A program made the position numbers and the translations under genes. The notes beneath the pieces are model-generated. The model was not told the origin of the DNA, did no database searches, and worked only from the letters and a program-made list of their open reading frames with translations. A DNA stretch of 32,000 nucleotides, taken from the NCBI GenBank assembly GCA_963704755.1, contig OY969938.1, positions 3,480,001 through 3,512,000 of the forward strand, in the 5' to 3' direction. This document shows positions 1,793 to 26,306 of this stretch, one piece after another. The stretch comes from an uncultured Chloroflexia bacterium (GTDB lineage: Bacteria > Chloroflexota > Anaerolineae > Anaerolineales > Anaerolineaceae). Every line of letters begins with the position of its first letter. Within the stretch, counting starts at the first letter, position 1.

Positions 1793-3245
1793 ATGGCCCA
1801 ATCCGACCTGAATATTCGTCCCCAGCCCGACCGCGAGCTGGTCGATATTGCTGATTACGTACTGGACTATCCGGTGACCAGCCGGGAAGCGTACGCTACC
1901 GCCCGGCTGTGCCTGATGGATACATTGGGCTGCGGCATGGCCGCTCTGGCCTTTCCGGCCTGCACCAAATTGCTGGGTCCGCTGGTGGCGGGGACGGTCG
2001 TGCCGCAGGGTGCCCGCGTGCCGGGTACAGATTATGTGCTCGACCCGGTCAAGGCCGCCTTCGATATCGGCGCGATGATTCGCTGGTTGGATTTCAACGA
2101 TACCTGGCTGGCGGCCGAATGGGGCCACCCTTCCGATAACCTGGGCGGGATTCTGGCGGTGGCGGACTGGCTCTCCAACCAGGCTGCGGCAGCAGGAAAA
2201 ACCCCGCCGAGCGTGCGCTCACTGCTGACGGCCATGATCAAGGCTCACGAGATCCAGGGAGTGATGGCCCTGGGCAACAGTTTCAACCGGGTCGGCCTGG
2301 ACCACGTGCTGCTGGTGCGGGTTGCCACCACGGCGGTGACGGCGGACCTGCTGGGTTGCGACCGCGGGCAAATCGTCAATGCGCTGTCCAACGCCTGGAT
2401 CGATGGGCCGGCCTTGCGCACCTACCGGCACGCGCCCAATACCGGCTCGCGCAAGTCCTGGGCCGCCGGGGATGCCTCGGCGCGTGGGGTGACCCTGGCG
2501 CTGCTGGCGTGGAAGGGCGAAATGGGCTATCCCTCGGCGCTCAGCGCGGAAACCTGGGGTTTTTACGATGTGTTCTTAAAGGGCCGCCCGTTCGAGTTCC
2601 GCCAGGGCTACGGCTCGTATGTGATGGAAAACGTGCTCTTCAAGGTCTCCTTCCCGGCCGAGTTCCACGCCCAGACGGCGGTGGAGGCCGGGTTCAAGCT
2701 GCACGCGCAAGTCCAGGATCGCCTGGAGGATATCGAGCGGGTGGTCATTGTGACCCACGAGTTCGGCCATGCGTATTATCGACAAGCGCGGGCCGCTGAA
2801 CAACCCGGCCGACCGGGATCACTGCATCCAGTACATGACCGCGGTCGCGCTTATTTTTGGCGAGCTGACGGCGGCCGATTACGAGGACGAAGCCGCTGCC
2901 GATCCGCGCATCGATGCCTTGCGCGAGAAGATGACCGTGGTGGAGAACAAGCAGTTCTCGCGCGATTACCTGGAACCCGAAAAACGCTCGATCGCCAATG
3001 CGGTTCAGGTGTTTTTCAAGGACGGAACGGCCACTGAAAATGTGACTGTGGAATATCCGCTGGGGCACCGCCGCCGGCGGGCCGAGGCGACTCCGCTGCT
3101 GGGGGAGAAATTTGAGCGCAATTTGGCCAGGCGCTTCTCGGCCGGGCGGATCGCAGCCCTCCGGGAGCTCTTCGCCGATCCTGACCGGCTGGATGCCACC
3201 CCGGTGAATCGGTTTGTGGATCTGTTTTTGCCTGGTGGAGATTGA
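1793..3245 (+). pseudogene. prpD: 2-methylcitrate dehydratase, reading frame broken by one extra base near 2762
   Basis: The N-terminal ~320 aa (frame of 1793) look PrpD/MmgE-like up to ...VVIVTHE. The C-terminal part (frame of 2769) reads [25 protein letters not shown]...VEYPLGHRRRR, the conserved PrpD C-terminus as I recall it from E. coli. The second frame has a TGA at 2751-2753, so the shift must lie between 2754 and 2769. Removing one T of the TT at 2762-2763 gives [11 protein letters not shown]. Confidence 0.85.
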
Positions 3246-3254
3246 GGGGGAATT

Positions 3255-3326
3255 AACCACGGAGGCACGGAGAACACGGAGAAGAGAAGAAGGAAAACCA
3301 CAGAGAACACAGAGTTCACAGAGAAG
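3255..3326. repeat. two tandem same-orientation half-elements of the CACGGAG-heptad family
   Basis: aaccacGGAGgcacGGAGaacacGGAGaag (3255-3284), then aaccacAGAGaacacAGAGttcacAGAGaag (3296-3326). Same arm sequence as the hairpins at 6120 and 7487, but with no inverted partner here. Confidence 0.85.
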
Positions 3327-3748
3327 AATATTTGAAAGAACATTGTCGTAGGGTGCGTTTGAGGGCTGACATCGAGAACATAGTTGAATAACCAAACCAT
3401 TAGCCTAACCTGGCGTGCCCGGAACGCACCAATATGGCGCTGCCTAAAAAAAACCATAAGGCACGGGGGAAATGGCTTGCTGCAGAGCGCGCAGAGAATC
3501 TTTTGGGGAATCTGGCTCTTCCCTCCAAATCGATTTTGATTTAGGGGAAAGCAGGGCAGGGGGGCAGGGCGCCGGGGCTTGATAATTTACCGCAGAGGCG
3601 CTGAGAGCGCTGAGGAAAAATTTTATAATGAGAGGCAATTTAATTAAGGAATTGCCACCAAGCAGATCGGCCCGGTCTCCAGACCGAGGCCGCTCTTCAG
3701 CGCAGTTATTTCGAGCCCACGGGCTGGCCAACCGGCGCTCTTTGCCCC

Positions 3749-3988: not shown

Positions 3989-4152
3989 GACACTTATCAC
4001 AGGGCAATCGCATCATGCCAATTTAGTCCCAAAAGAGAGGTAATTTTGAGTGTTATTGTGGGGCTACGCCCCACAATAACACTCAAAAACCTATTCTTTG
4101 GGGAATTGCCCTTGAAAAGCAGGCAGGCTGCAATCGCCCTGACACTTATCAC
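3989..4152. mobile_element. MITE-like element, ~138 bp, copy 1 including flanking 12-bp direct duplication
   Basis: Element 4001-4138 has imperfect terminal inverted repeats (agggcaatcgca / tgcaatcgccct) and a central 21-bp stem (4044-4064 / 4068-4088). It is flanked by identical gacacttatcac at 3989-4000 and 4141-4152. A reverse-complement copy lies at 14038-14178. Confidence 0.7.
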
Positions 4153-6119: not shown

Positions 6120-6193
6120 AACCACGGAGACACGGAGAGCACGGAGAAGGATTTGTCTTTTTTCTTCTCCGTGTCCTCCGTGTCTCCGTGGTT
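6120..6193. repeat. CACGGAG-heptad hairpin between convergent genes (probable bidirectional terminator)
   Basis: 30-nt arms aaccacggagacacggagagcacggagaag (6120-6149) and cttctccgtgtcctccgtgtctccgtggtt (6164-6193), 2 mismatches, T-rich 14-nt loop. Starts 9 nt after the stop at 6111 and overlaps the stop of the minus-strand gene at 6192. Confidence 0.8.
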
Positions 6194-7227: not shown

Positions 7228-7403
7228 CTGTAGGGTGGGTGCAGGGCTCATAAAAAATGCTGGCGAACAAAAAGTGGATGTCCCAACCCAGGAATTGCCC
7301 ATAACCCACCATCCGTACATAATGGTGGGTTACGGGCAAGGTTTGGATAGGGTGCCGCTCGACGATTCCTCGGCGTTCTCCTTGAGCCCTACACCCACCT
7401 ACA
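7228..7403. repeat. nested inverted-repeat element
   Basis: Outer arms ctgtagggtgggtgcagggctca (7228-7250) and tgagccctacacccacctaca (7383-7403), imperfect. Inner 18-bp stem ttgcccataacccaccat (7295-7312) / atggtgggttacgggcaa (7322-7339), one mismatch. Confidence 0.65.
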
Positions 7404-7486: not shown

Positions 7487-7546
7487 CACCACGGAGGCAC
7501 GGAGGACACGGAGAAGAATTTTTTCTTCTCCGTGTCCTCCGTGGTT
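7487..7546. repeat. CACGGAG-heptad hairpin at the 3' end of the desaturase gene
   Basis: Perfect 19-bp stem cacggaggacacggagaag (7498-7516) / cttctccgtgtcctccgtg (7525-7543), loop aatttttt. The left side carries one extra heptad (7487-7497). Lies 11 nt from the stop at 7557. Confidence 0.85.
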
Positions 7547-8618: not shown

Positions 8619-8840
8619 TGGGGGGATCCTTTCTTGGAAAACCAATAACCATTCGACACCACTCAGGCCATGCTGAAAAGAAGGAGGTCGCCACGCTACT
8701 TTTTTTCGATGAACTGAACAACACTTTTCATTTTAAGGATTGAGCAGCCAAATATATATAGATAATGTAGGTGTAATTAGTCATGATATGGGTCATATTA
8801 TTTCCTGGCAGTGGACATATGACGGGATGTGTGTTTTGGG

Positions 8841-8921
8841 TTATTGCTCAGCCTAACGGGTAAGAACTCCCAATTCGGGGTGTACGCGAGGGGTTTACCC
8901 TCGCGTACACCCCGAATTGGG
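8841..8921. repeat. flank motif plus perfect 24-bp palindrome (family P1)
   Basis: gttattgctcagcctaacgggtaagaac, then cccaattcggggtgtacgcgaggg (8869-8892), loop gttta, ccctcgcgtacaccccgaattggg (8898-8921). Confidence 0.9.
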
Positions 8922-9052
8922 AAACTTCTTGCACAAACCCGAGAGTTTATGTGTTTTTTCATTCCCAATGGATAAGAGCTGTGGTTTAATCAAAAGCCTG
9001 TACCTGCAGAGGTTGAGCGGTAATAAGGATATTTTTCTGGAAGGTTTATATT

Positions 9053-9784
9053 GTGGAGACGTCTTCTCCGGCATTGGCAAAATCGATAACGCCTGAAGCC
9101 CCTACCCGCGGACGCGAATTCCTGTCGGGACTGCAGGGCGTGCTGCCGTTGATCGTCGGGATTGTGCCCTTCGGCATGATCTACGGCGTGCTGGCGATGG
9201 CTGCCGGTTTACCGGTGGGGGCCGCCCAGGCGACCTCGGCCATCATCTTTGCCGGGTCGTCCCAGTTAGCGTTGGTGCAGTTGTTGGCCGTCGATTCGCC
9301 CGCCTGGGTTGCGGTCCTGACGGTAATCGTGCTCAACCTGCGCCATTTACTGTATTCGGCCTCGATGGCGCCTTATCTCAAGCACCTGCCCAACCGCTGG
9401 AAAGTAATTTTGTCTTATTTCCTGACCGACGAAGTATATGCGGTCAGTATTATCAAGTACGAGCGGGATGGTTTTTCACCCAACCGGCACTGGTATTTGT
9501 TTGGCGCGGGGGTGGGCTTGTGGTCCACCTGGCAGATCAGCACGGCCATTGGAATTTTCCTCGGGGCCGTCATCCCTACCACCTGGCCGCTGGATTTCGC
9601 TTTGGCGCTGACTTTCATCGCCATGGTGGTGCCTTCACTAAAAGACCGGGCCGGGGCCGCGGCTGCGCTGGGAGCCGGGATCCTGGCGGTGGCCTTCTAC
9701 CGCCTGCCGTATAACCTGGGTCTGATCCTGGCGGCGTTGGCCGGCATCGCGATTGGGATGCTGGTGGAGAGGAGGCGGGCATGA
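9053..9784 (+). CDS. azlC: AzlC family branched-chain amino acid exporter subunit
   Basis: 243-aa polytopic ORF (GTG start at 9053; start uncertain). IFAGSSQLALVQLL-type AzlC region. ATGA overlap with a downstream azlD-like ORF. Confidence 0.75.
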   Translation: METSSPALAKSITPEAPTRGREFLSGLQGVLPLIVGIVPFGMIYGVLAMAAGLPVGAAQATSAIIFAGSSQLALVQLLAVDSPAWVAVLTVIVLNLRHLLYSASMAPYLKHLPNRWKVILSYFLTDEVYAVSIIKYERDGFSPNRHWYLFGAGVGLWSTWQISTAIGIFLGAVIPTTWPLDFALALTFIAMVVPSLKDRAGAAAALGAGILAVAFYRLPYNLGLILAALAGIAIGMLVERRRA

Positions 9785-10113
9785 CCCTGTGGATTTTGCT
9801 GATTGTGGCCGGCTTGCTGACTTACCTGATCCGGCTTTCTTTTATCGCCTTGTTTGGCAAAATCGAGACTCCGCCGCTGGTCACCCGCGGTCTGCGTTTT
9901 GTACCCCCGGCGGTGTTAACGGCGATCATTTTTCAGGAATTGTTCGTGCAGGGCGGGCATATCGCCCTGGACTGGTCCAACCCGCGCCCCCTGGCCGGGC
10001 TGGCGGCGGCCCTGGTGGCCTGGCGAACGCGCAGCCCATTGTGGACGATTTTGGCCGGAGCGCTGATTCTGGCACTGATCTTGCTCCTGGATTCATCGTT
10101 CCTGCCTTCCTGA
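9781..10113 (+). CDS. azlD: AzlD family branched-chain amino acid transport protein
   Basis: 110-aa hydrophobic ORF, translationally coupled to azlC. Typical size and topology. Confidence 0.7.
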   Translation: MTLWILLIVAGLLTYLIRLSFIALFGKIETPPLVTRGLRFVPPAVLTAIIFQELFVQGGHIALDWSNPRPLAGLAAALVAWRTRSPLWTILAGALILALILLLDSSFLPS

Positions 10114-10209
10114 GCGACCTTTTTCGGCCCGAACCTGGCTGCCGGGCGAGCCAATGACTTTGCCCGGGCACGCGTCCGGCCGGTACGGAGGGCGGGCAAG
10201 TGAAAAACA

Positions 10210-11613
10210 ATGAGCCTTAAAAAGATTCTCAATTGGTCTATCTGCACATTGGTGGGATTGTGCCTGGCGCCGGCGTTGATCGTTTTCCCGGTAGCCGCCA
10301 GCAGCCAACCCGCCCAGGTACCGCCAGACTTCAACCTGATCGAATCGGGCAGCGGCGTCAGCCTGTATAGCAAGGACTACCCCGGCGGAACGCCTGACTA
10401 CGTTTTGCTGGTTAACCTGAATAAAAAGGCCGGCTTGCAGTTCCTGACCGGGACGGTGGGCAGCGCGGGTACGGGCAGCGGGTATTACGGGGGCGATAAT
10501 CCCAGCTATGCACGCCGGTCCCTTTCCGATTTCTGGACCGATTTCAGCGGCTCCAATAGCAAGGCCTTTTGCGTGCTCAATGGGGCTTTCTTTTCCAGCA
10601 ACGATGACCCGGCTCAACTGGCTTTTCCCCTAAAAGTGGACGGAACCCTGGCCAGCGGGGGCGGGGATGGCGGCTCTTACGAGGGCAAGCAAATGATGCT
10701 GGAGATCTGGAGCGACCACGCGGCCATCCAGTCGTTGAGCAAGGACGCACTGAGTGGCTCGAGCGCGCCGGACATCCTGGCCGGCTTGAGCGAGGATGCC
10801 GACAAAGGCCCGCGCGACCTGGTGGGACGCACTTTTGTAGGGGTAGCAGACCTGAACGGTGATGGGCAGGCTGAAGAGGTGCTGTTCCTGGTCTCCAAGA
10901 CCACTCGCCAGGCGGACGCCGCATCGGTGCTGCGCAGTTTTGGGGCGAGCCAGGTGATGATGCTGGATGGCGGCGATTCGGCCCAACTATTGTGCCACGG
11001 GCAGCCATACGTGTACTCCGAACGCACCATCCCCCAGGCGATCGGCGTGGTGGACGGGGTGGTTTCGGATTACGCCGCGATCCTCTCCAGCCAGCCAGCC
11101 TGGCCGGTGGTGGTGGTGGGCGAAACCCAGGAGATTACCATCACGGTGCAGAACAACGGCAGCGTCACCTGGCAGCCGGGGGACGTGTACCTGAACAATG
11201 TGCGCAATGATTGGGGCGCCGGCCAGCGCCTGGATTTGAAAACTCCGCTGGCCCCGGACGAATCGACCAGCTTTACCTGGACGACGCCTCCTTTTGATAA
11301 GAGCGGGGTGTTTACTTCCTCGTGGGAGCTCAAACGCGGCGATACCACCCTCAGTGACCATCCCCTGGTGATCAGCCTGGTGGCCATCCCTAAGGAGCTC
11401 GAGTCGCGCAAGGTGGAGCTGCAAAACCAAATCCACCAGTGGGCCCAGGACCAGGTCAACAACATCGAGAACCTGGTCTTGCAGTGGCTCCAACAGCAGA
11501 TTCACACCGGCGTGCAGAGCCTGTTCGACAAGGTCTGCCCCTCTTCGGCCGCGCTGCCGGGTGTGGCGTTGGCCATAACGTTCTGGCTGTGGCGCAGGAA
11601 ACGTCATTTGTAA
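10210..11613 (+). CDS. secreted phosphodiester glycosidase-like protein with Ig-like domain and C-terminal membrane anchor
   Basis: Signal-peptide-like N-terminus. FCVLNGAFFSSND and VMMLDGGDSAQL resemble NAGPA/DUF2233 motifs. The ITITVQNNGSVTWQPGDVYL region is Ig-like. Hydrophobic C-terminal segment followed by RRKRH. Confidence 0.55.
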   Translation: MSLKKILNWSICTLVGLCLAPALIVFPVAASSQPAQVPPDFNLIESGSGVSLYSKDYPGGTPDYVLLVNLNKKAGLQFLTGTVGSAGTGSGYYGGDNPSYARRSLSDFWTDFSGSNSKAFCVLNGAFFSSNDDPAQLAFPLKVDGTLASGGGDGGSYEGKQMMLEIWSDHAAIQSLSKDALSGSSAPDILAGLSEDADKGPRDLVGRTFVGVADLNGDGQAEEVLFLVSKTTRQADAASVLRSFGASQVMMLDGGDSAQLLCHGQPYVYSERTIPQAIGVVDGVVSDYAAILSSQPAWPVVVVGETQEITITVQNNGSVTWQPGDVYLNNVRNDWGAGQRLDLKTPLAPDESTSFTWTTPPFDKSGVFTSSWELKRGDTTLSDHPLVISLVAIPKELESRKVELQNQIHQWAQDQVNNIENLVLQWLQQQIHTGVQSLFDKVCPSSAALPGVALAITFWLWRRKRHL

Positions 11614-11653
11614 AATTATTATAACGACACAAGTTTCTATTAAAAAGTTCTCA

Positions 11654-11847
11654 AATTTGAGGTGTATGCGGGGGCGAAGCCCCCGCATACACCTCAAATT
11701 CGGGCGACTTACCCGTTGGGCTGCGTAGTTACAAAATATTATAACTACGCAACTACCCCAAAAGAGAGGTGTTTTTATTATTTTTTGCGGGCTTCGCCCG
11801 CAAAAAATAATAAAAACACCTCTCTTATCTGAATTAACCTGAGTAAC
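11654..11847. repeat. composite of three consecutive hairpins (P1, short stem, P2) ending in gaattaacctgagtaac
   Basis: Perfect 22-bp palindrome 11654-11675 / 11679-11700 (loop gaa). 9-bp stem 11723-11731 / 11742-11750. Perfect 30-bp palindrome 11763-11792 / 11796-11825 (loop ttc). Flank motif ttacccgttgggctg at 11709-11723. Confidence 0.9.
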
Positions 11848-11972
11848 AACCAACATTTCACTTTGTGTATGCGACTCGGTTTACGCTATAATCCCCATAC
11901 CGCTATGCACTGGTATGATTTTCGATGCACATACCTGACGCGCCCCTGATAACCCGGTAGAGGAGTTGCGCC

Positions 11973-12545
11973 ATGAAAACGGATTATACTGGTCACGTAA
12001 AGGCTTTACTGTTATGCCTGGATCCTCACTCGCTGGAATCGACCCGTGTCCACGAGGTGAGCGCCGGGTTCGAAGGGCTGGTGGGGGATAAACATGCCGG
12101 CCTTACCCACCTTTCCGACAGCCGTACGCCGTTTTATACATTGGGGACGGTGATTCGCAACCACCGCCAGATTTCGATTGTCTCGGTCGAGGAGCTGGAT
12201 CAAATCGCCAGGGATATGGGCCTGCCCGAAGTCTTACCGGACTGGTTGGGGGCTAACCTGGCCCTGGAGGGCATTCCCGAACTGACCTTGCTGCCACCCA
12301 TGACGCGGATTTTCTTCCCGCATGGCACCGTCCTTTCGCTGACCGGTGAAAACCTGCCTTGCAAGAATCCCGGGCGGGTGATTCAAGAGAAGCACCCGGA
12401 CCACCCCGGTCTGGTGGAAGGGTTTGTCAAGGCGGCCATGCACAAGCGGGGGTTGGTAGCCGTGGTCGAGAAGCCGGGACTGTTGGTGGATGGGGATGAG
12501 GTCTGCTTTAGCGTGCCGGGGCAATATCGCTATAACTTGAAATAG
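11973..12545 (+). CDS. MOSC domain-containing protein
   Basis: 190-aa ORF. GLVGDKHAG, IRNHRQISIVSVEEL and a beta-barrel-like C-terminal half fit my recollection of MOSC proteins. Confidence 0.55.
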   Translation: MKTDYTGHVKALLLCLDPHSLESTRVHEVSAGFEGLVGDKHAGLTHLSDSRTPFYTLGTVIRNHRQISIVSVEELDQIARDMGLPEVLPDWLGANLALEGIPELTLLPPMTRIFFPHGTVLSLTGENLPCKNPGRVIQEKHPDHPGLVEGFVKAAMHKRGLVAVVEKPGLLVDGDEVCFSVPGQYRYNLK

Positions 12546-12566
12546 TGAAGTAGATTGGAGGTGTGT

Positions 12567-12971
12567 ATGGATAACCCGTTGCTCAAAAAGCTGGTTGTCA
12601 AAGCTGAGTATCGCATGCTGGTGCTGAATTCACCACCGGGTTACCTGGAAAAGCTTTTGCCTCTGCCAGAAGGGACCCAATTGCTGACCGAAGCAGATGG
12701 GGAATTCGATTTTGGTCTGGTATACGTCACAAGCCGGGTCCAGGTTGAAGAGCATGCCCCCCAGATGCTCTCGGTCATCAAACCGGGCGGCGTGATGTGG
12801 TTTGCTTACCCCAAACGCGGCAAAGGTATCGAGACGGATATCAACCGGGACAGCGGCTGGGATGTGCTCAAGGAAGCCGGCTACCGCGGCATCGCCAACG
12901 TGGCCATCGACGAGACCTGGTCGGCGGTGCGCTTCAAGCCGCTGGCGGATATCACTCCACGGGCCGCTTGA
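12567..12971 (+). CDS. hypothetical protein (possibly DUF3052-like)
   Basis: ORF 12555-12971. The ATG at 12567 is preferred (GGAGG at 12557-12561). Its 3' end overlaps the convergent methyltransferase gene by 20 nt. Confidence 0.5.
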   Translation: MDNPLLKKLVVKAEYRMLVLNSPPGYLEKLLPLPEGTQLLTEADGEFDFGLVYVTSRVQVEEHAPQMLSVIKPGGVMWFAYPKRGKGIETDINRDSGWDVLKEAGYRGIANVAIDETWSAVRFKPLADITPRAA

Positions 12972-13998
12972 GCCCTTTTCTGGCGATCGCACCGTCCTTG
13001 CGGGTTACCCGCAGCACGGCTATTTTGGTGGAGTGATTGAACGGCGCCGGGTCGGCCGGCGGCCGGCTGACGCGGGTGGCCGGATAGCCGGCCACGTCTT
13101 CCGGCACCAGGATGCGCTCTGCCAGGTGCAGGTAGCCGTTGGTGCATAATTGCTCCAGCGATTGGCTGAATTGAGCCCCGCTGGTGAAAATCGAGTTGTT
13201 GACCAACACCAGACAGCCGTCGTGGGCCACCAGCGGGCGGATTTTGTTCGCCAGGGTCACATATTCGGCCTGGATATCCACCTTGCCGGAGACGCCGGAC
13301 GAGAAGAAGGGCGGGTCGAGGATGACACAGTCGAACAGGCTGCCGGCCTTTTTCAGCCCGGCGATGACCCGGTAATAGTCGCCGGTCATCTCGCGGTGGG
13401 CCGCATCAGGCCAGCCGTTCAGCCGGCAGGTACGCCCGGCCAGGTCGAGGAAGCGCCGGGTGCGGTCGGTCTGGATGACCCGGTCCGCGCCGCCGGCCAG
13501 GGCGGCCGCGCCCAGGCTGCCGGTGTAGGCAAAAGTGTTCAGCGCCAGCTTGCCCCGCATGGATGCGTGCAGCCAGCGGCGCAGTTCGCGGGTATCCAGG
13601 TAAAAACCACAATCCTGGTTGAGGCGCAAATCCAGCGCATAGTGGATGTCATCTTCTATTAAGCTCTCGGGGAGCGTTTTGCCCCAGACCAGCCGGCCGC
13701 GGCGCTCGTTCTCGTCTGTGGATTGGCGGTTTTTGAGCAGGATCGATGTGACCCAGGGCAGCCGGTCCACCAGCCAGGCCGGTAAGGCCTGGGTGAGCAG
13801 CTCGCCCCAGCCGCCGGGCGGGTCGCTGTAATCGAAGAGCACCAGGCAAGGTCCATACGCGTCGATGACCAGCTCCGGGCAGCCTTCGAAGAAACCGGCG
13901 AACAGGCGGAATGCCCCCTGGTGAGGTTCCTGCAGCAGGTCCTGGCGGGCGGCCAGGGCCGCCTCGATCCGGTGTTGGAGGTCGCTTAACGGGATCAC
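12952..13998 (-). CDS. class I SAM-dependent methyltransferase, RlmI/RlmK-like
   Basis: 348-aa ORF. NTFAYTGSLGAAALAGGADRVIQTD (motif I region) and FDCVILDPPFF (motif IV) match the RlmI-type rRNA m5C methyltransferase layout. Confidence 0.75.
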   Translation of the reverse strand: MIPLSDLQHRIEAALAARQDLLQEPHQGAFRLFAGFFEGCPELVIDAYGPCLVLFDYSDPPGGWGELLTQALPAWLVDRLPWVTSILLKNRQSTDENERRGRLVWGKTLPESLIEDDIHYALDLRLNQDCGFYLDTRELRRWLHASMRGKLALNTFAYTGSLGAAALAGGADRVIQTDRTRRFLDLAGRTCRLNGWPDAAHREMTGDYYRVIAGLKKAGSLFDCVILDPPFFSSGVSGKVDIQAEYVTLANKIRPLVAHDGCLVLVNNSIFTSGAQFSQSLEQLCTNGYLHLAERILVPEDVAGYPATRVSRPPADPAPFNHSTKIAVLRVTRKDGAIARKGLKRPVE

Positions 13999-14037
13999 CG
14001 GGTAATTATAACGGCGGAATGGTTAACGGGAATGAGC

Positions 14038-14178
14038 AGGTCGATTGCAGCCTGCCTGCATTTCGAGGGCAATTCCCCAAAGAATGGGTTTTTGAGTGTT
14101 ATTTTGGGGCTAAGCCCCAAAATAACACTCAAAATTATCTCTCTGTTGGGACTAAATCGGCATGATGCGATTGCCCGG
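14038..14178. mobile_element. MITE-like element, copy 2 (reverse complement of 4001-4138)
   Basis: Aligns end to end with the reverse complement of copy 1. Central 21-bp stem 14090-14110 / 14114-14134. No flanking duplication seen here. Confidence 0.7.
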
Positions 14179-14256
14179 TAACCATTTCTGCAGAGTTACG
14201 TAGACTTAACATGAAGTTTGCGGCGATACAATTAAACTCAAGCCAGGAGGCATAAA

Positions 14257-14517
14257 ATGAGTGATCAGGAACAGAAAGTCCATTACGAAGAATTTCGTGT
14301 TCGCGGTGAAGATTTAGTTTCTAAAGTCAAAGAGATTTTTCACGAAGGCAATATCCGCCGGGTGATCATCAAAGACGAAACCGGGCGCACCATGATCGAA
14401 ATCCCGTTGACGTTAGGTGTGGTCGGCGTGGTTCTACTGCCTGTTTGGGCAGCCATTGGAGCGATTGCTGCGCTGGCGGCCAACCTGACCGTGGTGGTGG
14501 AAAAGGTGGACGATTAA
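14257..14517 (+). CDS. DUF4342-like small protein with C-terminal hydrophobic segment
   Basis: 86-aa ORF with AGGAGG RBS. EEFRVRGEDLVSKVKEIFHEGNIRRVIIKDETGRTMIEIPLTLGVVG matches my recollection of DUF4342. Confidence 0.65.
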   Translation: MSDQEQKVHYEEFRVRGEDLVSKVKEIFHEGNIRRVIIKDETGRTMIEIPLTLGVVGVVLLPVWAAIGAIAALAANLTVVVEKVDD

Positions 14518-14554
14518 AAACTAATTGTGGCTGCTCAGCCATCCAAGAGGGATC

Positions 14555-14607
14555 GATTGTTTTATAGTTTTTCGCGTGCGAAGCAGGCGAAAAACTATAA
14601 AACAATC
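14555..14607. repeat. T-rich palindrome (family P2 relative) 3' of the DUF4342 gene
   Basis: 21-bp arms gattgttttatagtttttcgc (14555-14575) / gcgaaaaactataaaacaatc (14587-14607). The apex contains tgcGAAgca. Confidence 0.85.
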
Positions 14608-14791
14608 TCTTAACCTATTGTTTACCCAATTTTGCTTGTATGTTTTACGAAAATATGGAAAATATAGATAGTTAATTCCTGTAGAGACCAGGAGCCTTGT
14701 TCAGAATTTATGGGTAGATCCCATTTACGTTACAGCAATAATCCATTTTCCTCTCCTTATTTATGGCTTTGCAAGGTGAGCCTGCCATGAG

Positions 14792-14832
14792 CGACCGGTG
14801 TTGAGACTGTCTCAACACCGGTCGTTTCGTTT
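14792..14832 (+). terminator. intrinsic-terminator-like hairpin immediately upstream of the RNase H-like gene
   Basis: Perfect 15-bp stem cgaccggtgttgaga (14792-14806) / tctcaacaccggtcg (14810-14824), loop ctg, then tttcgttt (14825-14832). The ATG of the next gene is at 14847. Confidence 0.6.
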
Positions 14833-14846
14833 ACTACGAGGGTGAT

Positions 14847-15386
14847 ATGACATTGACGCTTCGCTTCGACGGTTTGTACATGAGTATTCCCAAAAAGGGC
14901 GGAAAATTCAGCAGCGCCGGTTTCATGTGTTATGGCTGGATCATTTCACGCGACGGCCGGGTGCTGGCACGCGGGCACGGCGGCTATGTCCAGGCCCACA
15001 ACGCCAGCTCGCACATCGCCGAGTACCTGGGTCTGATCGAGGGGTTGGAGGCGCTGCACGACATGGGCGCGACAGGTGAAACCATCCTGGTGATCGGGGA
15101 TGCCAAATCGCTGATCGATCAGATGCGCGGCAAAGCCGCGGTCAATTCAGACCATATCCGCCCGCTGAACCGGCGGGCCTGCCAGGCCGCCCGCGGGTTC
15201 GACGAGTTGATCTGGGAATGGCTGCCGCGGCGGAATAACCGCGCGGCCGACGCGCTCACCCGCCGGGCCTTACGCCAGATCCGGGCCAACCCGGCCAGCT
15301 ACATGTCGAATTTGTACGCCAAGGCGAAGCCTAAAACGAGCCAGTTCCGGCCGGTCCTGGATTTGCGCATCTACCAGCCGGATTGA
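14847..15386 (+). CDS. RNase H-like (RNase HI / RVT_3-type) protein
   Basis: 179-aa ORF. DEDD-like pattern (RFDG..., IAEYLGLIEGLEAL, VIGDAKSLIDQMRG, NNRAADALTRRAL). Confidence 0.7.
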   Translation: MTLTLRFDGLYMSIPKKGGKFSSAGFMCYGWIISRDGRVLARGHGGYVQAHNASSHIAEYLGLIEGLEALHDMGATGETILVIGDAKSLIDQMRGKAAVNSDHIRPLNRRACQAARGFDELIWEWLPRRNNRAADALTRRALRQIRANPASYMSNLYAKAKPKTSQFRPVLDLRIYQPD

Positions 15387-15394
15387 GTATCTGC

Positions 15395-15540
15395 GGTAAG
15401 AACCCCGAATTTGAGGTACGTGTGGGGGCTTAGCCCCCACACGTACCTCAAATTCGGAGTACTATTTAACTAGAGCCTGAATAGTTACAATAATTCTCGG
15501 GGTGCGATCGTCTGCAACCCGAGAATTAACCTGAGAGTAG
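15395..15540. repeat. composite repeat: P1 palindrome, linker, second hairpin, aacctgagagtag end
   Basis: Perfect 25-bp palindrome 15405-15429 / 15433-15457 (loop tta). 10-bp stem 15492-15501 / 15518-15527. Shares tagttacaa and gaattaacctgag modules with 11654-11847. Sits between convergent gene ends. Confidence 0.9.
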
Positions 15541-21873: not shown

Positions 21874-21950
21874 AATAATCTCCTTTTTCGAAAGATATCT
21901 GTAAATTCAATAACTTCTCAAGCAGGTTCAGAAGATATGGGTGTTTTTTA

Positions 21951-22038
21951 GTAACTACTCAGGTTCCTACCCGTTCGGCTGAGCAGTTATGTTTTTTATT
22001 GTTTTTTGTGCGCGAAGCACACAAAAAACAATAAAAAC
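21951..22038. repeat. flank motifs plus T-rich palindrome (family P2) inside the operon
   Basis: gtaactactcaggttcctacccgttcggctgagcagttatg, then 19-bp arms gtttttattgttttttgtg (21992-22010) / cacaaaaaacaataaaaac (22020-22038) with a gcgaagc apex. Confidence 0.85.
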
Positions 22039-24920: not shown

Positions 24921-25003
24921 TTAATCCGACTGGGTTTGGATGGACGGGGCTCGCCCTCACCCCCACCCCTCTCCCAGAAACGGGAGAGGGGCTAAGAAAG
25001 TGC
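24921..25003. repeat. 83-bp bracket repeat A, copy 1
   Basis: ttaatccgac...cccctctcccagaaacgggagagggg...aagtgc. Contains a perfect 10-bp stem, cccctctccc / gggagagggg. Copy 2 at 25813-25895 differs at 6 positions by my count. Confidence 0.9.
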
Positions 25004-25797
25004 GCCGGCCTTGCTACCCCCCGGCTTAGAAAGCCGGGCTACGGGCGGGCTTGGACAGCGTAGCTCGGGTTTCCAACCCGAGAGAGCGCTTGCCAAACTG
25101 AATCCCGGCTATGGGATCCGGCCCTTGCCGAAAGTGAGACCCACGCAGGTGGGTCTTTGTGTACACGTAGGTGCAGCTTTAGCTGCTGCGAGCCTGTTCA
25201 GAGATGCCGGCCTTGCCACCCCCCCCGGCTTTGAAAGCCGGGCTACGGGCAGGCTTGGACAGCGTAGCTCGGGTTTCCAACCCGAGTGAGCGCCGCCCGG
25301 CCTTAATCCTGGCTATGAATAGAGTTTTGCCAAAAGAGAGACCCACGCAGGTGGGGCTTGGTGTACGCGTAGGTGCAGCTTTAGCTGCTGCGGGCCTGTT
25401 CAGAGATGCCGGCCTTGCTACCCCCCGGCTTAGAAAGCCGGGCTACAAGTAGGCCTGTACAGCGTAGCTCGGGTTTCCAAACCCGAGAGAGCGCCGGCCA
25501 AACCGAATTCCAGCTATGGGATCAGACTCTGCCAAAAGTGAGACCCACGCAGGTGGGTCTTCGTGTAGTTGTAGGTGCAGCTTTAGCTGCCGCGGGCCCG
25601 GTCAGAGGCGTTGGCCTTGCTACCCCCCCGGCTACGGGCAGGCTTGTCAGCGTAGCTCGGGTTTCCAAACCCGAGAGAGCGCCGGCCAAACAGAATTCCA
25701 GCTATGGGATCAGGCTCTGCCAAAAGTGAGACCCACGCAGGTGGGTCTTTGTGTACTTGTAGGTGCAGCTTTAGCTGCTGCGGGTCTTGTCAGAAAC
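25004..25797. repeat. tandem array of four units (202, 202, 202, 188 bp)
   Basis: Units begin with gccggccttgc at 25004, 25206 and 25408, and with gttggccttgc at 25610. Four conserved stem-loops per unit. Unit 4 lacks the first stem-loop. Confidence 0.9.
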
Positions 25798-25812
25798 GCC
25801 GGCCTTGCTACT

Positions 25813-25895
25813 TTAATCCGACCAGGTTTGGATGGCCGGGGCTCGCCCTCGCCCCAACCCCTCTCCCAGAAACGGGAGAGGGGCTAAGAAAGAGC
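25813..25895. repeat. 83-bp bracket repeat A, copy 2
   Basis: Same length and order as 24921-25003. Flanked on both sides by gccggccttgctac (25798-25811 and 25896-25909). Confidence 0.9.
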
Positions 25896-25946
25896 GCCGG
25901 CCTTGCTACCCCCCCCCGGCTTTGAAAGCCGGGCTACGGGCGGGCT
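25896..25946. repeat. truncated fifth array unit
   Basis: gccggccttgctacccccccccggctttgaaagccgggctacgggcgggct matches the first ~50 nt of the unit and then diverges. Confidence 0.85.
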
Positions 25947-26108: not shown

Positions 26109-26306
26109 AATGGCCGGCCGGCGCTGTTCCCCTGATTGCGCGCAAAAAATAAACAATGGTCCAGGATCGGGTTCAGAAATCCCTGAATTTGATGTGTCTG
26201 TAGGACAATACCCAGAGAACACACCCAGTTTAGCGTACTTTCCTGTAGGTCTGGGCAGGCTTATTGAGGGAGGGATGAATTTTAGGTTAATTTTTGCGAC
26301 TCTATC

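Follow-up and report, generated by a model that had tools for sequence, protein, structure and literature searches.

A proposed MITE family in Anaerolineae whose perfect hairpin cores are probably homogenised and flipped by template switching

Palindromes of the window and the elements around them

The 32,000-nucleotide stretch of DNA analysed here (the window) contains three related palindromes that differ from one another in sequence and have perfectly paired arms, which raises the question of how both arms come to change together. Their cores are the following:

8868-8922, no strand: core palindrome of copy 1, with 25-nt arms that are 100% complementary and a GTTTA loop
11652-11702, no strand: core palindrome of copy 2, with one mismatch; perfect part 11654-11700, centre GCGAAGC
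15402-15460, no strand: core palindrome of copy 3; perfect part 15405-15457

The perfect part of copy 2 has 22-nt arms (complementarity 100%) and a GAA loop, and the palindrome of copy 3 can be extended to 15399-15463 with 94% complementarity. Direct reading of the arms shows 4 differences between copies 1 and 2 over the 21 positions they share, and 4 between copies 2 and 3 over 22; since all three copies are perfect palindromes, every difference between them is mirrored. The 4+4 mirrored differences reported by an earlier, sequence-only reading are therefore present. All three copies are also intergenic, as that reading had it; the genes on either side are divergent for copy 1, tandem for copy 2 and convergent for copy 3. 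Hairpin lengths in the window are far above chance, with 10 hairpins having stems of at least 16 bp, against none in 30 first-order Markov simulations of the window, where the longest stem was 15 bp. Folded as single-stranded DNA, the copy 1 element reaches -42.2 kcal/mol (z = -10.2). At least five more long hairpins of the same class, which the earlier reading had missed, are found at 4044-4088, 11762-11826, 14090-14134, 14555-14607 and 21993-22037.

The palindromes are almost certainly stems of 22-27 bp at the centre of ~112-bp transposable elements of the non-autonomous kind (MITEs). MITEs as such are an ordinary kind of element, and we put this one forward as a new family. From the outside inwards, a copy consists of a 12-nt terminal inverted repeat (TIR), GTAACT[A/G]CTCAG, two outer arms of ~16 nt that are conserved among copies and not complementary to each other, and, in the middle, a perfect hairpin whose closing sequence is usually GCGAAGC or GCTTCGC. 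The motif GCGNAGC, an extraordinarily stable DNA mini-hairpin (PMC13037366), is central in 43 of 87 long hairpins. Copies reach GTAACTRCTCAG at both ends and are 108-113 bp long; at 112 bp, copy 1 agrees with the TIR-delimited copies of other genomes, which span 111-113 bp. The sequence-only reading had overlooked these larger elements, with TIRs and target-site duplications enclosing the palindromes, which are arranged in the window as follows:

8830-8837, no strand: left target-site duplication of copy 1, TGTGTTTT, a perfect direct repeat (8/8)
8838-8949, plus strand: MITE copy 1, 112 bp; left terminus GGGTTATTGCTCAG, right terminus degenerate (...CCGAGAGTTTA)
8950-8957, no strand: right target-site duplication of copy 1, TGTGTTTT
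11621-11732, plus strand: MITE copy 2, 112 bp; left terminus ATAACGACACAAG, right terminus CTGCGTAGTTAC
11741-11847, plus strand: related MITE adjoining copy 2, 107 bp; termini ATAACTACGCA... and ...CCTGAGTAAC
14527-14625, plus strand: related MITE with the same terminus type (GTGGCTGCTCAGCC) and a different core
15390-15488, plus strand: MITE copy 3; right terminus CTGAATAGTTAC (15477-15488) clear, start coordinate uncertain
21951-21990, plus strand: core-less derivative, 40 bp; GTAACTACTCAG, outer arm, CTGAGCAGTTAT

Copy 2 is flanked by AAATTATT (11613-11620) and AAAATATT (11733-11740), which match at 7/8 positions, the left repeat overlapping the stop codon of a NAGPA-family gene. The MITE adjoining it has a longer, different core (11760-11828, arms of 31-33 nt, centre GCTTCGC), and no clear target-site duplication was found at its flanks. 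The core of the MITE at 14527-14625 spans 14555-14607, with 25-nt arms at 96% and centre GCGAAGC. The left outer arm of copy 3 is recognisable only from ~15395 (GGTAAGAAC), and its start coordinate is uncertain because the left end is truncated or diverged beside the stop codon of an RNase H-like gene. The core-less derivative, also unnoticed before, lies between the two halves of a perfect 8-bp duplication, GTTTTTTA (21943-21950 and 21991-21998). The shared motif that the earlier reading placed beside each palindrome does exist, but it belongs to the element itself, as its outer arm, and is not a flank: TTACCCGTTNGGCTG is found exactly at 8849-8863 (minus strand), as part of the left outer arm of copy 1, and at 11709-11723 (plus strand), and with one mismatch at 21967-21981, in the core-less derivative. 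Beside copy 3, GGTAAGAAC is located at 15395-15403, ~4 nt off the position given earlier.

Among 33 TIR-delimited copies, flanking direct repeats match at 8/8 positions in 13 and at 7/8 in 6, and 0 of 297 shifted controls reach 7/8. A filled site (L070) reads GTATGCTA-AGTCTATC-[112 bp]-AGTCTATC-AGCTTGAG and its empty orthologue (L176) GTATGCTA-AGTTCATA-AGCTTGAG; this is a clean insertion. Presence of the element also differs between L072 and L110 (87% identical) and between the window and L112, whose orthologous desaturase-AzlC spacer lacks copy 1. The elements are abundant in genomes of Anaerolineae (Chloroflexota). The 12-nt TIRs and 8-bp target-site duplications are marks of a DDE transposase, and since the ends are those of the ISBst12 group (IS66 family), we infer that such a transposase, encoded elsewhere in the genome, moves the elements. 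No transposase domain was found among the 36 ORFs scanned in the window, in agreement with the earlier reading and as expected for a non-autonomous element. No cognate full-length, autonomous IS with these ends was recovered from ~0.9 Mb of sampled loci, and our literature search found no description of MITEs in Anaerolineae, nor of ISBst12-derived MITEs.

Mirrored changes and inverted centres among copies

In an alignment of 55 copies found by an independent half-site search, 95.5% of the stem cells pair, versus 84.5% in shuffles, and 22 of 27 pairs show change on both sides (145 two-sided cells versus 23 one-sided). None of 500 shuffles attained these pairing and covariation values, and slid controls gave 30-45% pairing. 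Uncompensated mismatches are thus not prevalent in this larger set, which upholds the earlier proposal that palindromy is maintained rather than an accident of three young copies. A minimum spanning tree of the copies contains 66 two-arm changes (62 of them Watson-Crick in both copies), a seven-fold excess over the 9.6 coincidences expected (maximum 20), and 48 one-arm changes; the latter are not rare, so homogenisation is not instantaneous. The 125 metagenomic copies comprise 89 distinct inner sequences, mostly perfect or one mismatch off. G-T intermediates are scarce, as the one-sided and two-sided cell counts of the 55-copy alignment indicate.

At resident sites, moreover, decay is slower in the stems than in the flanking duplications, by a factor of about 3-6. 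Across 27 full copies, mismatches amount to 0.20 per position in duplications versus 0.035 per pair in stems, and to 0.053 and 0.020, respectively, in a conservative subset of copies whose duplications mismatch at no more than 2 positions. Between the orthologous elements of L176 and L070 (position 3420 in the latter; 86.6% identical) the differences are two mirrored pairs, one G-C to A-T and the other C-G to G-C. The window copies look young, judging by their 8/8 and 7/8 duplications, and their mutual differences therefore arose in master lineages, not in place.

We also compared near-identical orthologous pairs, assembly against assembly. In 5 of 11 pairs (flank identity 97.0-99.7%, aligned blocks of at least 300 nt) an inverted centre is the sole difference. 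In one of these (L188/L029) an imperfect 32-bp centre is swapped for its exact reverse complement, with one SNP in the flanks. An orthologous alignment of 28.8 kb has 10 clusters in which at least 3 differences are adjacent, and 6 of these are located at hairpin centres. Relative to outer-arm polarity, loop orientation is mixed in the CAZMMI MAG (5 GAA : 4 TTC) and in the DAIQPZ MAG (2:6), and uniform in the JAFGLU MAG (11:0). This uniformity fits poorly with a very high flip frequency in DAIQPZ-type orthologues; either rates are lineage-specific, or population polymorphism or misassembly accounts for some of the loop-only flips.

Proposed origin of the mirroring and rival explanations

Taken as a whole, the elements probably represent a new MITE family with a core homogenised and flipped by intra-palindrome template switching. 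As to the mirroring itself, we lean towards quasi-palindrome template switching in the course of replication. The nascent palindrome strand would fold back or switch strands, and one arm would be synthesised with the other as template. A switch within one arm would revert a new single-arm mutation or make it a mirrored pair, and a switch across the centre would invert the loop; the outer arms, being non-complementary, would stay unaffected. Arms would thus evolve in concert, strand-symmetrically and at the DNA level, with no need for an RNA function, and selection on the element for a transposition-aiding hairpin or cruciform may act too. Template switching has been described to homogenise the arms of inverted repeats, to invert spacers, and to be able to create and maintain perfect hairpins (PMC8794818, PMC5941160, PMC8604942). 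Regeneration of one arm from the other had been offered by the sequence-only reading beside hairpin selection, and it is the better supported of the two, given the centres inverted in situ and the rarity of G-T pairs. These two observations, and only these, favour a DNA-level mechanism; selection on the hairpin, by element or host, predicts the same covariation.

Selection at the level of the element would imply that transposition requires a perfect central hairpin (a cruciform or folded single-stranded DNA), which could, for example, help the two ends to meet, the element being shorter than the DNA persistence length. New copies would then descend solely from those whose stems are intact, and ordinary compensatory evolution in master lineages would account for the mirrored differences. 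A perfect core is present in every subfamily that has these termini, even where the core sequence is unrelated (11760-11828, 14555-14607), perfect cores differ among many copies whose duplications are perfect, the mini-hairpin motif is central in about half of the hairpins (43/87), and core-less derivatives were seen only as single examples. We nevertheless regard this explanation as unlikely, for it accounts neither for in-place inversion of centres, nor for the slower decay of stems than of duplications in resident copies, nor for the mirrored pairs of the resident orthologues L176/L070; the 40-bp core-less copy with its perfect duplication, moreover, either moved core-less or lost its core in place. 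The inversions could instead be short-read assembly artefacts of repeated palindromes, which would leave in-place inversion without direct evidence. Only assemblies were compared, 4 of the 5 inversions are loop-only, inside perfect arms of 23-26 nt, the flipped copies in L142 and L168 are close to contig ends, and orientation is uniform in the large-k JAFGLU MAG (contigs named k87) and mixed in SPAdes-style assemblies. By reasoning, however, orientation is resolved once k reaches arm + loop + 1 (~31); the imperfect centre of L188/L029, with ~17 nt of perfect arm, is unambiguous at k of at least 21, L133/L017 carries an extra substitution, and three inversions are contig-internal with both unique flanks matched, making artefact a quite unlikely source of the flips. 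It is highly improbable that nothing maintains the arms and that very young copies of several slightly different masters are each perfect by chance. Many copies are indeed young, with perfect 8-bp duplications in 13 of 33, and in the window the duplications match at 8/8 positions for copy 1 and at 7/8 for copy 2, but the question merely shifts to the masters, given that the 125 metagenomic copies have 89 different inner sequences; the seven-fold excess of mirrored changes and, within the same copies, the slower decay of stems also speak against it.

A host-level RNA function, with hairpins serving as terminators, 3'-end stabilisers or small-RNA precursors and arms kept paired by selection on RNA, appears very unlikely. 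Copies 2 and 3 do lie 40 nt and ~15 nt past stop codons, L112 (61% identical) has unrelated long hairpins at the same positions 3' of the NAGPA-family and desaturase genes, and a deletion derivative (L104:3908) consists of a 12-bp stem with a T run after it. However, copy 1 and the hairpin at 14090-14134 are located between divergent genes, the stems have no T tract after them, 0 of 3 window copies were called terminator-like, and the terminator-like count (27 versus 23.1 +/- 5 in shuffles) is not elevated. Copies occur in both orientations and their presence varies among close relatives. Since G-U cells are scarce (23 versus 145 double changes), the structure is strand-symmetric, unlike selected RNA stems. 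A search of Rfam returned no family at the gathering score, only weak generic hairpin hits (E < 1), and we regard the elements as neither terminators nor Rfam RNAs. The sequence-only reading had suggested looking elsewhere in the genome for a RAYT/IS200-IS605-type HUH gene, which implies REP/REPIN-type elements mobilised by a RAYT (an HUH Y1 transposase). The repeats are short, abundant, intergenic and hairpin-forming, with no transposase nearby, but they have 12-nt TIRs and 8-bp duplications, their termini match a DDE-type IS66-family element (ISBst12 group), no conserved GTAG or GGAG tag was found at the hairpin foot, and the stems are much longer and more perfect than REP stems, which leaves this affinity practically no probability.

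Comparison with known systems

The closest counterpart of the termini is ISDge4 (IS66 family, ISBst12 group), which has TIRs GTGACTACTCAGCA and GTAACTGCTCAGCA and an 8-bp direct repeat, and for which transposition has been shown (PMC12898284); IS66-family repeats begin with GTAA and yield 8-bp direct repeats (PMC11946415). Its TIRs are nearly identical to the MITE consensus GTAACT[A/G]CTCAGC and both have an 8-bp target-site duplication, but ISDge4 is ~1.5 kb long, encodes a 449-aa transposase and resides in Deinococcota, whereas the MITEs described here are ~112 bp, non-coding and hosted by Chloroflexota. REP/REPINs share with them abundant intergenic palindromic repeats and a hairpin kept across copies, but have no TIRs or target-site duplications, and show a GTAG-type tag, short imperfect stems and an HUH enzyme; none of these traits holds for our MITEs.

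Correia/NEMIS, RUP, MITEAba12 and Nezha are bacterial MITEs that are short, non-coding, multi-copy and mostly intergenic, with TIRs, target-site duplications, long hairpins and insertion polymorphism. Unlike in these, complementarity is partitioned here: outer arms are conserved and non-complementary, and the inner 22-27 bp are variable yet perfect, with a DNA mini-hairpin centre and evidence of that centre inverting in place. Quasi-palindrome template-switch mutagenesis (Ripley; Lovett; Loytynoja and Goldman) predicts perfect arms, one-step multi-base mirrored changes and spacer inversion, in exact agreement with the pattern observed. It is a general mutational process and not an element family, whereas here, as we propose from sequence comparison, it would recur in mobile palindromes that number hundreds per genome. 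In the flip/flop of parvoviral terminal hairpins, the asymmetric tip of a palindrome is met in either orientation and copying of one arm from the other keeps the two identical, through a dedicated rolling-hairpin replication of a linear single-stranded DNA genome; the palindrome described here is internal to chromosomal DNA, and only the outcome is alike.

Palindromes as the cores of short mobile elements

The three long palindromes reported in the sequence-only reading (copies 1, 2 and 3) were found again in the sequence, all of them perfect. They are the cores of MITEs, elements of about 112 bp with terminal inverted repeats (TIRs), two outer arms and a central palindrome, which are non-autonomous derivatives of a DDE transposon. 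The members of the family in the window are listed below.

MITE copies, their cores and related elements in the window
8838-8949: MITE copy 1, 112 bp, target-site duplication TGTGTTTT
8868-8922: core palindrome of copy 1, 25-nt arms, loop GTTTA
11621-11732: MITE copy 2, 112 bp, target-site duplication AAATTATT/AAAATATT
11654-11700: core palindrome of copy 2, 22-nt arms, loop GAA
11741-11847 and 14527-14625: related MITEs, termini of the same type, cores different
15405-15457: core palindrome of copy 3, perfect (15399-15463 at 94% if extended)
to 15488 (right end): MITE copy 3, left arm truncated at the adjoining stop codon
21951-21990: core-less derivative, 40 bp, perfect target-site duplication GTTTTTTA

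The TIR GTAACTRCTCAG was present at both ends of copies in the window and in three metagenome-assembled genomes (MAGs), and when the 50-nt flanks were displayed arm against arm, all well-preserved copies reached GTAACT[A/G]CTCAG on either side. The length between termini is 108-113 bp, with no ORF possible. In JAFGLU01 and CAZMMI01, two Anaerolineae MAGs rich in copies, the full element reads GTTACTACTCAGCCAGAGGTGGAAGAAA-CCTGAATTTGAGGTGTATGTGGGGTGC-GAA-(mirror)-AACTTTCCCCACCCTCTGAGCAGTTAC. Its two outer arms are conserved across copies and are not complementary to each other, while the inner 22-27 bp are perfect. The motif TTACCCGTTNGGCTG, earlier taken for a flank shared by the palindromes, is in fact the outer arm of the element; it adjoins copies 1 and 2 as an exact match, and a third site (21967-21981) has one mismatch.

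Insertion was accompanied by an 8-bp target-site duplication, perfect in 13 of 33 TIR-delimited copies and matching at 7 of 8 positions in another six; none of 297 shifted controls reached 7 of 8. An orthologous pair of loci provided both states of one site: GTATGCTA-AGTCTATC-[112 bp]-AGTCTATC-AGCTTGAG where it is filled (L070), and GTATGCTA-AGTTCATA-AGCTTGAG, with a single 8-mer, where it is empty (L176). The presence of elements also varied between two loci that are 87% identical (L072 and L110). In the relative L112 (61% protein identity), the desaturase-AzlC spacer kept its conserved motifs and copy 1 was absent; the comparison of the window copies with L112 bears on presence or absence only. 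For the NAGPA-family protein of the window, encoded on a 4.87-Mb contig, the closest relative is 61% identical, so the source is an Anaerolineae-like genome that has no close relatives among those sequenced. Deletion derivatives without the core occur, and internal deletions of the MITE were found at L104:3908-3935, L100:695-764, L034:5844-5900 and L039 (around 7370-7400). The first of these has just a 12-bp stem followed by a run of T, resembling an intrinsic terminator.

As had been noted from the sequence, the copies are intergenic (copy 1 between divergent, copy 2 between tandem and copy 3 between convergent genes), and no transposase domain was found among the window genes. The neighbours are ordinary housekeeping genes, encoding a fatty-acid desaturase, AzlC/AzlD, the NAGPA-family protein, a MOSC protein, a methyltransferase and an RNase H-like protein. 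Ten hairpins with stems of at least 16 bp occur in the window, against none in 30 Markov simulations, in which the longest stem was 15 bp.

Several other repeats share the region. Hairpins that are perfect or nearly so, and in which no MITE termini can be recognised, lie at 21993-22037 (with a GCGAAGC centre, adjoining the duplication of the 40-bp mini-MITE), at 14792-14824 (just before the RNase H-like gene begins) and at 15491-15528. The sequence CCTGAATTTGATGTGTCTGTAGG at 26176-26210 is like the left half of the core, has no evident right arm and could be what is left of a decayed or truncated copy. Elements of a second, MITE-like family, 136-139 bp long, occur twice in the window in opposite orientations, at 4001-4139 and about 14040-14176, with termini that differ from those of the main MITE (AGGGCRATYGCA); the first stands between direct repeats of 12 nt, GACACTTATCAC, at 3989-4000 and 4140-4151. 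Their cores (4044-4088 and 14090-14134) are one mirrored substitution apart and about 62% similar to the core of the main family. Arrays of the octamer CACGGAGR, a repeat class unrelated to the MITE, occupy 3245-3340, 6120-6193 and 7498-7543, the latter two being head-to-head hairpins with 21-30-nt arms placed right after the stop codons of the flanking genes. Hairpins of L112 (7341-7391 and 11399-11463) and of the window (7498-7543 and 11654-11700) stand in equivalent places, right after the stops of the desaturase and NAGPA-family genes, and are unrelated in sequence, which suggests that hairpins have been repeatedly acquired or retained at these 3' ends. A 202-bp unit is repeated 4.1 times in tandem at 25003-25811 (83% matches), with a flanking repeat at 24921-25022 and 25813-25914; the units are non-coding, adjoin a GntR regulator gene and each carry short GC hairpins (e.g., CCCGGCTTAGAAAGCCGGG). 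Finally, prpD (MmgE/PrpD, 1793-3245) is broken up: its N-terminal domain is in one ORF (1793-3037) and its C-terminal domain in another that overlaps it (2769-3245), the break being a frameshift, the mark of a pseudogene or an error of sequencing.

Mirrored change between copies and at single sites

The arms of copies 1 and 2 differ at four positions, as do those of copies 2 and 3, and the arms confirm the earlier observation that all of these differences are mirrored, since every copy is a perfect palindrome. Scanning one genome per species with the pattern AATTYGRGGT-N20-36-ACCYCRAATT gave at least 111 loci. Among the matches listed, members of the family were concentrated in the Anaerolineae MAGs DAIQPZ01, JAFGLU01 and CAZMMI01, with at least 12-14 loci each, and the others were different repeat families or chance matches. 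When the same loci were scanned for hairpins in general, long ones occurred at 0.2-0.35 per kb.

So as not to favour perfect stems, we looked for the outer 12-mers of the two arms separately, with no more than two mismatches, and then paired the matches. In the resulting alignment of 54 half-site pairs and window copy 1, standard pairs filled 95.5% of 1363 cells (shuffles gave 84.5% and slid controls 30-45%), and 22 of 27 pairs changed on both sides; two-sided changes amounted to 145 cells and one-sided changes, of the G-U type, to 23. None of 500 shuffles reached these measures. Along a minimum spanning tree of the copies, 66 pair positions had changed on both arms and 48 on one, where 9.6 two-arm coincidences were expected and 2000 randomisations gave at most 20; the both-arm changes were Watson-Crick in both copies in 62 of the 66 cases. 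The pairs of the core thus covary. Another 125 elements came from a metagenome scan; among their inner sequences 89 were distinct, and the majority were perfect or one mismatch short of it. That the palindromes are maintained, as first proposed, holds in this larger set, which is without many uncompensated mismatches, though imperfect and decayed copies do occur. The comparison of G-T with A-C asymmetry, made with regard to the RNA strand, had few mismatches to draw on and no transcription orientation as an anchor.

The two halves of a target-site duplication are identical at insertion, and the duplication therefore serves as an internal neutral clock. Over 27 full copies, mismatches stood at 0.20 per position in the duplications and 0.035 per pair in the stems; in a conservative subset with no more than two duplication mismatches, the values were 0.053 and 0.020. 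Stems therefore decay more slowly than duplications. Outer-arm identity was also tried as a proxy of age, and copies in which it is low may belong to other subfamilies.

We identified 12 pairs of orthologous elements, 11 of them near-identical (97.0-99.7% identity, measured in aligned blocks of at least 300 nt) and one diverged. Five of the near-identical pairs were identical, one had a single-arm C-to-T change and five differed only by an inverted centre. Four of these inversions involve the loop, GAA/TTC or CAA/TTG (L141/L142, L133/L017, L217/L036 and L118/L168), and in the fifth, L188/L029, an imperfect 32-bp centre is swapped for its exact reverse complement. The diverged pair (L176/L070:3420, 86.6% identity) had two mirrored substitutions and four single-arm changes. 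Across 28.8 kb of orthologous alignment, six of the ten clusters of at least three adjacent differences fell on hairpin centres. All copy and orthologue comparisons rest on assemblies. The loop-only flips lie in perfect arms of 23-26 nt, where a k of about 31 or more should resolve orientation, and the L188/L029 inversion cannot be a k-mer ambiguity; at least one robust inversion has occurred in place. Relative to outer-arm polarity, GAA and TTC loops numbered 5:4 in CAZMMI01, 2:6 in DAIQPZ01 and 11:0 in JAFGLU01. Possible reasons for the uniformity of JAFGLU01 are inversion rates that vary by lineage, a recent burst and an effect of the assembler; the uniformity implies that flip rates differ between lineages, or that some flips are polymorphism or artefact.

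Mirrored changes between copies were also seen in a sister subfamily, with outer arms ending in GTGGTAGG or GTGGTGAA and the core CCGCAATTTGGGGTGTGAGAGCGGC (L074:84-136, L085:2519-2571, L049:7242-7294, L048:228-280, L018:5975-6027, L079:517-568, L003 and L023); at least one copy (L049:7242) has a terminus of the GTAACTACTGG type. Among the scan matches listed there were also two unrelated families of palindromes, each in multiple copies whose interiors vary yet are perfect: AATTYGGGGTCAGAG...CTCTGACCCCRAATT in diverse Proteobacteria (L013, L028, L054, L057, L063, L067, L069, L080, L084, L096, L102 and L109) and AATTTGAGGTAGGGGCAATT.ATGAATTGCCCCTACCTCAAATT in Chamaesiphon cyanobacteria (L010, L083 and L106).

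Source of the mirroring

Template switching at inverted repeats homogenises their arms, inverts spacers and can both create and maintain perfect hairpins (PMC8794818, PMC5941160, PMC8604942). Acting during replication, it would yield mirrored changes, transversions included; it would account for the scarcity of G-T intermediates, a sign of strand symmetry; and it would invert hairpin centres and leave the non-complementary outer arms untouched. Since one process would explain all four features, we consider it the most likely source of the mirroring, at somewhat better than even confidence, and we infer both the switching itself and its correction of one arm from the other. Selection for the hairpin at the level of the element is a serious explanation too, either as a partner of template switching or as its rival: the perfect core has been kept in all subfamilies, and GCGNAGC, a DNA mini-hairpin motif, stands at the centre of 43 of 87 hairpins.

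A bolder reading, which we regard as rather improbable, is that the core is a working part of the element, its extrusion or folding aiding transposition and driving the flips. The GCGAAGC-centred palindrome would extrude as a cruciform, or fold in single-stranded DNA, and so bring together both ISBst12-type ends, which an element of this length is too short to do by looping; very short MITEs would thereby become transposable. Frequent extrusion would turn the core into a hotspot of strand switching, where it would keep re-symmetrising and flipping at rates high enough to differ between strains more than 99% identical. If so, a DDE transposase would have a transposition substrate dependent on structure, coupled to a natural high-rate inversion "clock".

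The elements offer a clean natural case of compensatory covariation in DNA palindromes, most likely without RNA function. Their strong covariation most likely reflects DNA mechanics instead, which calls for caution when RNAs are sought by covariation (R-scape, RNAalifold) in genomes rich in repeats. If the inversions in place hold at read level, hundreds of elements per genome would offer a ready-made way to assay how fast template switching proceeds in uncultured bacteria and what controls it genetically.

Likeness to ISBst12-type insertion sequences

Other kinds of palindromic repeat were considered and set aside. The initial suspicion of a REP/RAYT system fails on the presence of 8-bp duplications and terminal repeats; moreover, the foot of the hairpin is CC[C/T]G, there is no GTAG tag, and no RAYT (Y1 HUH) gene was found within the window. 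As for intrinsic terminators, a T tail is missing from all three cores, and the intergenic space around copy 1 is a divergent promoter region. Rfam 15 gave no match at gathering score over the whole window; at E < 1 there were weak matches to miRNA-precursor and sRNA models, scoring 18-33 bits against cut-offs of 55-100. Integron attC sites and CRISPR repeats were dropped, the copies being dispersed, in both orientations, among housekeeping genes. The identity of the palindromes is settled: they are ordinary mobile DNA, neither a new RNA nor a REP system.

In all loci, about 0.9 Mb, TIR pairs 0.9-3.5 kb apart were sought, and no full-length autonomous IS was found between such ends; each candidate proved to consist of ordinary genes with a MITE on either side. 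We found no literature on ISBst12-derived MITEs and nothing relevant on MITEs in Chloroflexi or Anaerolinea; in the literature searched there was thus no description, for this phylum, of a MITE family with ISBst12-type ends such as the one seen here in Anaerolineae.

ISDge4 of Deinococcus geothermalis, a member of the ISBst12 group of the IS66 family that has been shown to transpose, has the TIRs GTGACTACTCAGCA and GTAACTGCTCAGCA and generates an 8-bp direct repeat on insertion (PMC12898284); ends of the IS66 family begin with GTAA and produce 8-bp repeats (PMC11946415). The MITE TIRs are identical to those of ISDge4, as printed in PMC12898284 and not as held in ISfinder, at 12-13 of 14 positions. 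Because the GTAACT[A/G]CTCAGC ends match and the duplication is of 8 bp, the MITE appears close enough to be assigned to the ISBst12 group of the IS66 family. The MITE as a kind and its IS group of origin are already known, and the self-mirroring has a published general explanation. GTAA-starting ends and 8-bp direct repeats are common to the MITE and the ISDge4/ISBst12 group; what is unusual is the clean division of the element, whose outer arms are conserved and asymmetric and whose core varies yet is perfect, a division that raises the question of whether an ISBst12-type transposase requires a hairpin in the space between the ends, and also how often the centres appear to be inverted.
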